Shown here piece after piece: positions 32,911 through 34,110 of a stretch of DNA of 64,000 nucleotides. Both the position numbers and the translations under genes were made by a program. The notes under the pieces were generated by a model, which was not told the origin of the DNA, made no database searches, and saw only the letters and a program-made list of their open reading frames with translations. The first letter of the stretch is position 1. Each line of letters starts with the position of its first letter. Source of the DNA: an uncultured bacterium (GTDB lineage: Bacteria > JADJOY01); contig CAZYWA010000001.1 of NCBI GenBank assembly GCA_964650975.1, positions 6,980 through 70,979 of the forward strand. The letters are read 5' to 3'.

Positions 32911-34110
32911 TCACTTGCCGATCTTGTCGACCGCGCGCTGCGCCGCTTCGCTGATCGACACCGTGCGGTCGCAGTAGTCGATCCCGTACTTGGTGAGGAT
33001 CTTGGCCGCGTCCGCTTCCCACGCACCCGGCACGCGGAAGACCGCGATCTTGTCCTTGGGCTCGAATCCCAGCGCCTTGACACCCTTGATCACGCCGCGT
33101 GCCACGAGGTCGGCGCGGGTGTTCGACACCACGTTCGAGATCACCGCGATCTTGGTGACGCCGGGCTTCGAGAGCACCAGCTTGGTGAGCCGCTCGGTCT
33201 TGCCGACGCTCGGATTGCCGCCGATCGCCGCGTAGTTCGCGGGGCGGCCACCGGCCCGGCGCACCGCGTCGGTGATGGTGAGCGACCCGCCGCCGGCGCC
33301 GATCACCAGGCCGATGTTGCCGTCGAACTCGACCACCGGTCCCGCGACGCCGCGCGGGTCCTCGGCGTCGATCGCGGCGCCTTCCATCTCGAACGCGGTC
33401 GGCTCGCGCACCAGACGCTTGTCGTCGAGGGCGATGCCCAGCTCCTCGAGCAGCGCCTTGTTGCGTGCGCGGCCCTCGACCTCCATGTCCATGTAGCAGT
33501 CGACGGCCACGAACTTGCCGTCGTCGGCACGCACCAGCCGCGAGACGTTGGCCTGGGTGAGGTCGTGCTTGAGGAAGAGCTGGGCGAGACGGGCGATCAC
33601 GTTGGTGAGCGCCGAGACGTCGCCGCTCGGGGCCCCGAGGTCCGACGCCAGCTCCTTCGCGAGATAGGTCGAGAACGGGAAGAGCGCCGAGAAATGACGG
33701 CGGAACACCTTGCCGGGCTCGGTGTCCGCGAGGTCCTCGACGTTGCCGGCCTGCGCCGCGCCGATCATCACCGGCCGCTTGGCGACCCCGTCGTAGGTGA
33801 TCGCGAGGCTGTAGGTGGCGGCGCTCACATTCGCCGCTTTCTCGACCAGCACTCCTTTGGGCTTGCGTCCACCGTCGTCGAGGGCCAAGAGCTCGGTGGC
33901 GGCCGTGGCCGCCTCGGCCGCGCTTCCGGCGGGCTTGTGGGCCGTGGTTTGCAGCGAGGGCGACAGCACCTGCGCCTTCACCACCACCGCACCGCCCAGC
34001 TCCTTCGCCACTCGCTCCGCGTCCGCGGCCGTGGCCGCCGGGCTGCCCTCGACGGTCGGGATGCCGTTTTTCTTGAGGATTTTCTTGGACTCGAATTCGT
34101 AGAAGCGCAT
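32911..34110 (-). CDS. Succinyl-CoA synthetase β-subunit-like (ATP-grasp) protein with a divergent nucleotide-binding loop, a candidate malate-CoA ligase β subunit.
   Basis: N-terminus MRFYEFESKKILKKNGIP and C-terminal ligase-CoA domain (FDGNIGLVIGAGGGSL...ANYAAIGGN). The region equivalent to [16 protein letters not shown] instead reads VVKAQVLSPSLQTTAHKPAG. Confidence 0.65.
   Translation of the reverse strand: MRFYEFESKKILKKNGIPTVEGSPAATAADAERVAKELGGAVVVKAQVLSPSLQTTAHKPAGSAAEAATAATELLALDDGGRKPKGVLVEKAANVSAATYSLAITYDGVAKRPVMIGAAQAGNVEDLADTEPGKVFRRHFSALFPFSTYLAKELASDLGAPSGDVSALTNVIARLAQLFLKHDLTQANVSRLVRADDGKFVAVDCYMDMEVEGRARNKALLEELGIALDDKRLVREPTAFEMEGAAIDAEDPRGVAGPVVEFDGNIGLVIGAGGGSLTITDAVRRAGGRPANYAAIGGNPSVGKTERLTKLVLSKPGVTKIAVISNVVSNTRADLVARGVIKGVKALGFEPKDKIAVFRVPGAWEADAAKILTKYGIDYCDRTVSISEAAQRAVDKIGK

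Follow-up and report, generated by a model that had tools for sequence, protein, structure and literature searches.

Which parts of the nucleotide site can a phosphohistidine CoA ligase lose while the remainder of the enzyme is kept? In these ligases, namely the succinyl-CoA synthetases (SCS), ACLY, the citryl-CoA synthetases (CCS) and the ADP-forming acetyl-CoA synthetases (ACD), the site is regarded as invariant. A 64,000-nucleotide stretch of DNA from an uncultured bacterium (GTDB lineage JADJOY01; assembly GCA_964650975.1, contig CAZYWA010000001.1, forward-strand positions 6,980 to 70,979), hereafter the window, encodes the β subunit of a CCS/SCS-like acyl-CoA synthetase (β below) in which VVVKAQVLSPSLQTTAHKPAG stands where relatives have GGR(G/M)KAGG, the glycine-rich ATP loop (T-loop). 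A first-pass annotation, made from the sequence alone, had pointed out the missing GGRGK-type loop and an Ala-rich composition, aligned the protein to SucC or MtkA, and left two explanations, either altered nucleotide handling or membership of an undescribed clade of the superfamily; structure prediction, a profile-profile search and a survey of loop-less homologues next to malyl-CoA lyase (mcl) genes were proposed as checks. The analysis described here places β in an undescribed, widespread clade of acyl-CoA synthetase β subunits, and the motifs that this clade has lost suggest that it very probably handles nucleotides unlike any relative characterised so far.

Family Placement of the β Subunit

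The protein consists of an ATP-grasp N-terminal domain (residues 1 to ~229) followed by a C-terminal domain with the motifs GAGGGSLT and SNTRAD, which are of the CCS/ACLY type. Pfam assigned residues 3-193 to ATP-grasp_2 (PF08442) with 90.6 bits against a cut-off of 29.5, with a secondary match of 38.7 bits to ATP-grasp_5, and the closest sequence match in the Protein Data Bank (PDB) was CcsA, the large subunit of citryl-CoA synthetase (6hxq_B, E 1.2e-33). Structure prediction with AlphaFold2 (AF2) yielded a model with an overall predicted local distance difference test score (pLDDT) of 87, for which Foldseek returned template modelling (TM) scores of ~0.7 to SCS β chains and CcsA alike, the latter with an E value of 1.5e-30. 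The likeness to SucC or MtkA asserted in the first-pass annotation needs correction, as the best solved relative is CcsA, and the C-terminal domain carries GAGGGSLT in place of the NGAGLAM of SucC and MtkA. Identity to SucC (E. coli/SCS) amounts to 26-28%, and the scores stay below the cut-offs of both NCBIfam SucC models (155.9 bits against 370 for NF001913 and 146.3 against 375.6 for TIGR01016) and of the MtkA model NF010647 (118.6 bits against 604). Because these models failed and the glycine-rich lid, the E-x-N-P motif and NGAGLAM are all missing, the SucC and MtkA labels are unsuitable for β.

Its fold and its α partner place β among the ATP-grasp proteins and in the phosphohistidine acyl-CoA synthetase superfamily. 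The ATP-grasp fold and its strand lysine are present, the E-x-N metal motif and the glycine-rich lid are degraded, and the superfamily hallmarks of the nucleotide site are thus missing from the sequence of β. The Ala-rich composition is real, at 15.8% overall and 17.5% in the N-terminal domain.

In-Place Replacement of the Glycine-Rich Loop

Aligned positions are given throughout in E. coli β numbering, in which K45 and D204 of β itself are K46 and D213. The strand VVVKAQV is followed in β by LSPSLQTTAHKPAG, where the E. coli SucC counterpart carries the canonical loop, and residues 42-61 as a whole read VVVKAQV-LSPSLQTTAHKPA (window 33928-33987). The SucC loop GGRGKAGG (β52-59) has given way to SPSLQTTA, with a deletion of one residue. 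A reference set of 61 full-length proteins of the wider family, one per 50%-identity cluster and 28-51% identical to β, conserves K46 (61/61), R54 (59/61) and G58 (59/61), of which β retains K46 alone.

When an alignment of the β clade (A1, 53 sequences) was compared with one of the canonical sisters (A2) by hhalign, the two were collinear over 401 columns with a probability of 100%, 'Qvls~~~~~~~~k~a' of A1 sitting on 'QVLsgGRmKAGgi~FA' of A2. Given this collinearity, the T-loop was substituted in place and not displaced. The profile-profile search therefore speaks against a loop that is shifted and still conserved, and this reading, together with a plain misalignment, was rejected because MAFFT alignments with E. 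coli SucC and 61-64 representatives agree with hhalign on a change in situ. A regular-expression scan of β found one GGR/K-type motif only, GGRK at residue 80, which was rejected as a displaced T-loop because the hairpin that contains it is homologous to NGHMPVG of the sisters. The absence of a GGRGK-type loop, as first noted from the sequence, is borne out by these alignments.

The loop was lost in all 118 full-length proteins among the 120 closest homologues listed (P0006 and P0083 do not match over the full length) and in ~50 of 61 related loci from GTDB species-representative genomes. Over 178 aligned clade sequences the T-loop was the most variable segment measured, with an entropy of 2.17 bits, compared with 0.76 for the hairpin around residue 80 and a mean of 0.48 for the C-terminal domain.

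Loss of Constraint at Other Nucleotide-Site Residues

The loop is not the only part of the site affected. The EINPL motif (E. coli β197-201) reads NVSRL in β, so that E197β is replaced with N, N199β with S and P200β with R, at positions conserved in 60/61, 61/61 and 61/61 of the representatives, respectively. According to a review (PMC10342173), Glu197β is the residue towards which the phosphohistidine swings at the nucleotide site. The equivalent of Glu107β is Thr in the clade alignment behind the group counts below and Ala in an alternative MAFFT alignment; in the E. coli SCS-ADP structure, Glu107β is the ribose ligand.

The same decay was found throughout the core clade, which comprises 166 aligned sequences. 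Position 197 is D in 143 of them, N in 14 (β among these) and E in 8; position 199 is T in 54, S in 35, Y in 33 and F in 9; P200 has become S in 109; and E107 is E in 80 and V in 32, with others in the remainder. R54, G58, E197, N199 and P200, all near-invariant in the 61 relatives, are thus absent or variable across the core. Likewise, V44, K56, G58, position 62, E107, N199 and position 215 are invariant in the canonical near-sisters yet variable in the core, and all of these except position 62 belong to the nucleotide pocket. Retained in most core sequences are K46 (160), E99 (152) and D213 (147, otherwise H/A/E/G). As judged from the alignments, loss of the nucleotide-site motifs is a trait of the clade, and the decay is variable instead of converging on one fixed alternative. 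Altered nucleotide handling, the first of the two explanations offered initially, is strongly suggested rather than proven by the combined loss of the loop, of E-x-N-P and of constraint on the pocket.

Conservation of Site I

Site I, which is formed by α and the C-terminal domain of β and carries the thioester, acyl-phosphate and phosphohistidine chemistry, is intact by its motifs. The α subunit, which scored 291 bits against the NCBIfam SucD model (cut-off 336), has a CoA-binding Rossmann domain, the GHAG histidine, SEPGG with the equivalent of Glu208α, and SRSG. The core α subunits have the phosphohistidine-loop His, the SEPGG Glu and SRSG without exception (46/46), and the canonical sisters are identical here; the roles of His246α and Glu208α are described in the same review (PMC10342173). 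Within β, conservation is highest in the C-terminal domain, which has many invariant columns.

Two Motifs Gained by the Clade

Just before the hinge strand, the core clade has acquired a hairpin with the pattern L-D-D-G-G-R-K-P-x-G, six positions of which are 97-99% conserved (D79 163, G80 163, G81 162, R82 163, P84 165 and G86 161 of 166). The canonical sisters read L-E-I-N-G-H-M-P-V-G here, which makes the net gain one fully new acidic residue (I to D), one Gly and three basic residues. The AF2 model is confident at the hairpin (pLDDT ~93) and assigns strands to residues 42-46, 58-61 and 87-91. In the small subdomain of ATP-grasp proteins, those strands build an antiparallel sheet. Since the hairpin precedes strand 87-91 and the T-loop follows strand 42-46, both would lie on the same edge of this sheet, and the hairpin is a candidate for a replacement phosphate- or metal-binding element.

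The second motif, RRHFSALxPFSDY, covers residues 137-149 (RRHFSALFPFSTY in β), where the canonical sisters are variable. R138, S141 and L143 are each found in 166/166 core sequences, and F140, S147 and Y149 each in 164/166.

Distribution and Evolutionary Grades of the Clade

The core sequences all derive from uncultured bacteria, among which Myxococcota/Polyangiales, Binatia (UBP10) and Thermodesulfobacteriota metagenome-assembled genomes (MAGs) are the hosts, and some protein hits and loci duplicate one another. The 61 related genome loci are likewise confined to metagenome-assembled or uncultured-isolate genomes, with no cultured strain. The 120 closest homologues listed are 63-79% identical to β, and the mean column identity of A1 is 77%. 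Names in the source databases are generic ('ATP-grasp domain-containing protein', 'acetate--CoA ligase family protein') or read 'succinyl-CoA synthetase beta/citryl-CoA synthetase large subunit' and 'citryl-CoA synthetase large subunit'. A literature search turned up no characterisation of the present β/α/γ family and only a generic pathway annotation of Binatota. With the SucC and MtkA models failing, names that are generic and hosts that are uncultured, the second explanation of the first-pass annotation, an undescribed clade, is established.

Three grades were read from a neighbour-joining tree annotated with motifs, together with a motif table, and they form a graded series from canonical sisters through intermediates to the core. 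The canonical near-sisters (P0121, P0122, L054-L058 and L062), 48-53% identical to β, come from Solirubrobacterales/Thermoleophilia and some Binatia MAGs and have SGGRMKAGGVK, QEYY and AEINPL; the contig of P0121, at 1.6 kb, is uninformative on gene context. The intermediates (L047, L049, L051, L052, L025 and P0093) are exemplified by LASGRAAAGGVK with AEINAL and by LFPGSDKAATTK with VEVNSL. In the third grade, the core clade itself, the T-loop is highly variable.

Some members at the near-sister level are over-length (P0501, 708 aa; P0487, 670 aa; P0006, 559 aa). P0501 combines a β-type ATP-grasp domain with the α-type Pfam domains CoA_binding and Ligase_CoA and probably represents a natural β-α fusion; in P0487 and P0006, the domains are of the β type only.

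Operon, Lyase Partner and a Third Gene

In the window, β is followed after 49 bp by the α gene, then after 23 bp by a short gene (γ) and after a further 12 bp by mcl (Table 1). The encoded lyase (Mcl) matches the malyl-CoA lyase of Chloroflexus aurantiacus (4l7z/4l80) with 461 bits and E 1.4e-137 over chain residues 29-346, against merely 174-193 bits for the Rhodobacter and Methylobacterium enzymes (Methylobacterium 174). In the survey of related loci, mcl was found no more than 8 kb from the β gene in ~55 of 61, canonical near-sisters included, so that the recurrence of loop-less homologues beside mcl is confirmed. Because sisters with a canonical loop are linked to mcl too, the association with the lyase is older than the loss of the loop.

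Table 1. Positions in the window of the operon genes, of motifs within the β gene and of other genes discussed
Feature	Position	Strand	Remarks
β subunit gene, CCS/SCS-like acyl-CoA synthetase	32911..34110	minus	399 aa plus stop; protein start MRFYEFESKKILKKNGIP
Strand VVVKAQV, residues 42-48	33967..33987	minus	holds ATP-grasp lysine K45 (E. coli K46β), K in 160/166 core
T-loop remnant LSPSLQTTAHKPA, residues 49-61	33928..33966	minus	one residue shorter than SucC counterpart; alignments, hhalign
Clade-specific hairpin LDDGGRKPKG, residues 77-86	33853..33882	minus	sole GGR/K motif in β
Clade-specific motif RRHFSALFPFSTY, residues 137-149	33664..33702	minus	core conservation
Degraded E-x-N-P motif QANVSRL	33535..33555	minus	replaces (L/A)EINPL; alignment with 61 relatives
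α subunit gene	31953..32861	minus	302 aa; Pfam CoA_binding and Ligase_CoA; loop MSFGHAGT (GHAG 32088-32099)
γ gene	31711..31929	minus	72-aa single-cluster ferredoxin-like protein (CPV...CxxCxxC), between α and mcl; tblastn, homologues
mcl gene	30628..31698	minus	356 aa; Chloroflexus-type L-malyl-CoA/β-methylmalyl-CoA/citramalyl-CoA lyase; last operon gene
Sulfotransfer_3 gene	34391-35509	plus	divergent from β
637-aa protein gene	28432-30345	minus	downstream of mcl; no Pfam match
α/β-hydrolase gene	27354-28346	minus	downstream of mcl; 330 aa; weak PETase/PAF-acetylhydrolase similarity
PrkA AAA protein kinase gene, then DUF444 gene	1-3229	plus	resembles yeaG/yeaH stress module
Fused 2-oxoacid:ferredoxin oxidoreductase subunit gene	19622-21613	plus	POR + POR_N + PFOR_II; ~11 kb from operon

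The γ gene, which was missing from the initial list of open reading frames (ORFs) because it is short, was first noticed in sister loci as a gene of 69-75 aa just 3' of α. By tblastn it directly follows α in ~61 loci of the core, intermediate and sister grades, and 309 homologues of 71-76 aa with four invariant Cys residues are present in databases, where they are labelled 'hypothetical' or 'PreA subunit'. Pfam gave 4Fe-4S (Fer4) matches, every one below threshold. From its cysteine pattern, γ looks like a ferredoxin-like protein with one [4Fe-4S] cluster, and the enzyme family as a whole, canonical members included, may have it as a third subunit. A causal role of γ in the loss of the loop was rejected, as the canonical sisters have γ too.

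In many loci, mostly of Myxococcota (for example L007:7090-7962; also L010, L014, L019 and L022), a second HpcH/CitE paralogue of ~288 aa that does not occur in the window lies between mcl and β. It matches the malyl-CoA lyases of Methylobacterium and Rhodobacter in two segments, with the CitE/RipC models below their cut-offs, and could be malyl-CoA thioesterase-like or citramalyl-CoA lyase-like.

Two further neighbourhoods bear on the substrate. On a 4.77-Mb contig of a Binatia genome (L070:4230-6669), two adjacent class-III CoA-transferase genes lie upstream of mcl-mcl2-β-α-γ, divergently from it; their best NCBIfam models, formyl-CoA transferase, succinate--glutarate CoA-transferase and succinyl-CoA:mesaconate CoA-transferase, all stayed below cut-offs, and the pair recalls SmtAB and Mct of the 3-hydroxypropionate bi-cycle. 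In a far sister with a canonical ATP loop (L068:5245-6717), the α and β genes of a class-I fumarase are located directly upstream of β-α-γ, next to which a 285-aa HpcH lyase is encoded, with an aldehyde:ferredoxin oxidoreductase and aminotransferases nearby. The fumarase supports malate as the substrate of the family, and both the transferases and the fumarase fit a metabolism of malate and malyl-CoA.

Comparison with Characterised Systems

The closest characterised system is CCS of Hydrogenobacter thermophilus (CcsA/CcsB, 6hxq_B), which has in common with the present enzyme the two-domain fold, the C-terminal GGGS and NTR(A/I)D motifs, a short hairpin before the hinge and a separate α-type subunit with the GHAG histidine. 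CcsA has the T-loop VGKRGKAG and EINPL, neither of which is found in β, and the lyase partner of CCS is, according to the literature, the citrate-synthase-like Ccl, whereas the lyase here is a malyl-CoA lyase of the HpcH/CitE fold. To our knowledge, no ferredoxin-like third gene accompanies CCS.

With SucCD (E. coli 1cqi/2scu; the GTP-specific pig enzyme 2fp4), β and α share the fold (TM ~0.7), the αβ pair, α-His246, Glu208α and SRSG, and K46, E99 and D213 of SucC are mostly conserved in the clade. The differences lie in a β subunit without GGRGKAGG, E197-x-N199-P200 and E107, in GAGGGSLT instead of NGAGLAM, and in the absence of neighbouring genes of the tricarboxylic acid (TCA) cycle. The malate thiokinase MtkAB of the serine cycle belongs to the same superfamily, is linked to malyl-CoA lyase and has the most similar predicted physiological role. 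MtkA is SucC-type, with the loop AGARGKAGG and NGAGLAM. The lyase in the window differs from that of the serine cycle in being of the Chloroflexus type (461 bits) and not of the Methylobacterium type (174 bits).

The near-sisters, likewise uncharacterised, share the β-α-γ unit, a nearby Chloroflexus-type mcl and an identical α phosphohistidine loop; they keep SGGRMKAGGVK, E107 and AEINPL, and have NGHMPVG where β reads GGRKPKG. ACD, a member of the superfamily through ATP-grasp_5, is relevant because some homologues carry the NCBI name 'acetate--CoA ligase family protein', but the β/α domain organisation and the type of α are those of SCS/CCS, and HK and GGV of the ACD lid are not conserved in the clade. 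The ACD lid starts with S-P (SPxxxHKSDxGGV), as does the clade consensus LSPxxLKAGAVK, a resemblance that serves as a lead only. Finally, SmtAB, the succinyl-CoA:(S)-malate CoA transferase of the 3-hydroxypropionate bi-cycle, provides a lyase of the same type with malyl-CoA. SmtAB would be a functional analogue if the present enzyme transferred CoA with a dead nucleotide site, although its fold and mechanism (class III) are unrelated, and SmtAB-homologous class-III genes co-occur with the enzyme in one Binatia genome instead of being replaced by it.

Possible Fates of the Nucleotide Site

The account that we favour, although tentatively, is that the nucleotide site (site II) has been rebuilt in a non-canonical form with the phosphohistidine chemistry intact, its partner being a nucleotide or else pyrophosphate (PPi) or polyphosphate (polyP). 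On this account, β, α and the mini-ferredoxin γ would form a distinct three-gene NDP-forming acyl-CoA synthetase, nearest to citryl-CoA synthetase, which would be paired with the Chloroflexus-type lyase and would most likely convert (S)-malate, or a closely similar C4/C5 hydroxy-dicarboxylate, into its CoA thioester and back; we infer malate/malyl-CoA or a near analogue as the substrate. In the Myxococcota/Binatia subclade to which β belongs, site II has been dismantled, with constraint gone from the T-loop, E-x-N-P, the ribose Glu and the base-sandwich positions, and it would have been rebuilt around the DDGGRKPxG hairpin with the help of the Lys and Asp retained at the equivalents of K46 and D213. 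Phosphoryl exchange with the phosphorylated α histidine would still take place on the ATP-grasp domain in a non-canonical manner, and the phosphoryl partner may be a nucleotide bound in an altered pose or a phosphoryl compound of another kind.

Several points weigh against a rebuilt site. Position 199 (T/S/Y/F), E107 and V44 are variable, D213 has changed to H/A/E/G in ~11% of the core, and E197 is N in the lineage of β, all of which fit a dead site. The intermediate L049 has lost the T-loop and has not gained the basic hairpin, so that the gain is not an obligatory compensation for the loss. The adjacency of hairpin and T-loop is inferred from fold topology and the strand order of the AF2 model, not from a distance. 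Moreover, the divergence of the ATP-grasp domain relative to α, 3.0-3.2-fold in the core against 1.4-2.3-fold in the canonical sisters, is a comparison over 6 sister pairs.

The strongest competitor, which is unlikely, runs as follows: site II would be dead, and the enzyme would work through site I alone, as an inorganic phosphate (Pi)-dependent phosphohistidine CoA transferase or in a Pi-dependent cleavage of thioesters. An acyl-CoA and Pi would give an acyl-phosphate and then the phosphohistidine, which would activate a second acid, as in a transfer from succinyl-CoA to malate, and the ATP-grasp domain would be retained for structure, regulation or docking. Such a site would explain why universal residues of E-x-N-P and the T-loop are lost with non-uniform replacements, why the N-terminal domain outpaces α in divergence more than it does in the sisters, and why constraint on α and the C-terminal domain of β is very strong. 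Some operons that are intact in other respects have replacements at D213 and K46, one case being P0007/L002 with VALHCY on a contig of 473 kb, and β has N at the position of Glu197β, which is said to be required for phosphorylation of the histidine by nucleotide (attributed to Fraser et al. 2002). There is also a textbook precedent in Chloroflexus, where a succinyl-CoA:malate CoA transferase feeds the same lyase. A useless domain should shrink, however, and the ATP-grasp domain of the core has instead kept its full length, is folded confidently by AF2 and has gained near-invariant charged motifs, with K46, E99 and D213 still 89-96% conserved. The class-III CoA-transferase pair adjoining the operon in one Binatia genome means that the transferase role may be filled already, and we know of no SCS-family enzyme that works physiologically in this way.

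At the conservative end, β could belong to a conventional malate thiokinase or succinyl/citryl-CoA synthetase that depends on ATP or GTP and has a tolerant lid and tolerant Mg ligands, which is quite unlikely. The enzyme matches SCS/CCS in fold, domain order and αβ operon, the adjacency of mcl resembles that of mtkAB and mcl in the serine cycle, 86% of the core shows the conservative change of E197 to D, and entries in the supplement of PMC8262859 annotate Binatota genomes with mtkA/B and mcl. Such an enzyme is hard to reconcile with NCBIfam scores far below the cut-offs (156/370 for SucC, 119/604 for MtkA), with C-terminal motifs of the CCS type unlike those of SucC/MtkA, and with the joint loss of five positions that are 97-100% conserved in the 61 relatives, for which variable replacements and no single fixed alternative have been substituted.

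As a special case of the rebuilt site, which remains the favoured account, site II may now serve a phosphoryl donor or acceptor that is not a nucleotide, such as PPi or polyP. Constraint has been lost at the base and ribose contacts (V44, E107), the phosphate- and metal-binding K46 and D213 are kept, and three basic and two acidic residues have been gained, net, in the adjacent hairpin, together with R138. This is an argument from the sequence pattern, we know of no PPi- or polyP-dependent member of the superfamily, and the neighbourhoods examined showed no genes related to PPi or polyP; a switch of this kind is very improbable. Taken more broadly, the idea that nucleotides have been abandoned in either of two ways, by a Pi-catalysed CoA transferase or by a malyl-CoA synthetase running on PPi/polyP via the hairpin, in both cases with a [4Fe-4S] mini-subunit, is a possibility on the doubtful side. 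If true, a nucleotide-free enzyme of either kind would represent a mechanism class undescribed for the superfamily.

An artefact, whether misalignment, frameshift, pseudogene or assembly error, has a likelihood close to nil, as the ORF is intact with a GC content at third codon positions (GC3) of 0.91, an identical 399-aa protein (P0001) is present in two public sources (JGI and ENA), the hhalign comparison is collinear and the operon is kept in ~60 genomes.

Other Genes in the Window and Related Loci

Neither a second canonical sucC nor a second HpcH lyase is encoded in the window, and no TCA-cycle or reductive TCA (rTCA) cycle genes adjoin the operon there. The other genes of the window, including PrkA/DUF444, CorA, pantothenate genes, a sulfotransferase, hydrolases, a hybrid histidine kinase, an AMP-binding ligase and an HTTM protein, show no functional link to the operon. 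The PrkA/DUF444 module is unrelated to the finding on β, and the fused oxidoreductase subunit possibly belongs to ferredoxin-linked carbon metabolism. The Sulfotransfer_3 gene is also adjacent to the operon in the closest relative, L059 (73% identity), where the 637-aa protein recurs with 76% identity, and L023 and L072 have more distant sulfotransferases close to the operon. Four recurring neighbour clusters (c8, with an EF-G-like N-terminus, c10, c13 and c23) occur in a subset of loci, mostly of Myxococcota, and look like lineage-specific synteny.

Implications

Present labels such as sucC, ccsA, mtkA or 'acetate-CoA ligase family' feed into pathway calls, and ccsA/ccsB/ccl serve in surveys as markers of the rTCA cycle. 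In its supplement, a genome survey of Binatota (PMC8262859) assigns mtkA/B and mcl to the serine cycle in most genomes, although the genes listed there may not be of the present family. If the clade does not activate malate or citrate in an ATP-dependent manner, inferences of the serine cycle and of the rTCA cycle would need to be revisited. The conserved γ, in turn, points to a third subunit that may have gone unrecognised throughout the family. In a superfamily whose nucleotide site has been considered invariant, a large natural clade has had this site taken apart while the remainder stayed under strong selection, and canonical sisters and intermediates are at hand for comparison. The clade thus lends itself to the questions of why the lid and the E-x-N motif are needed, and of whether other phosphoryl partners, or none, can serve the family.

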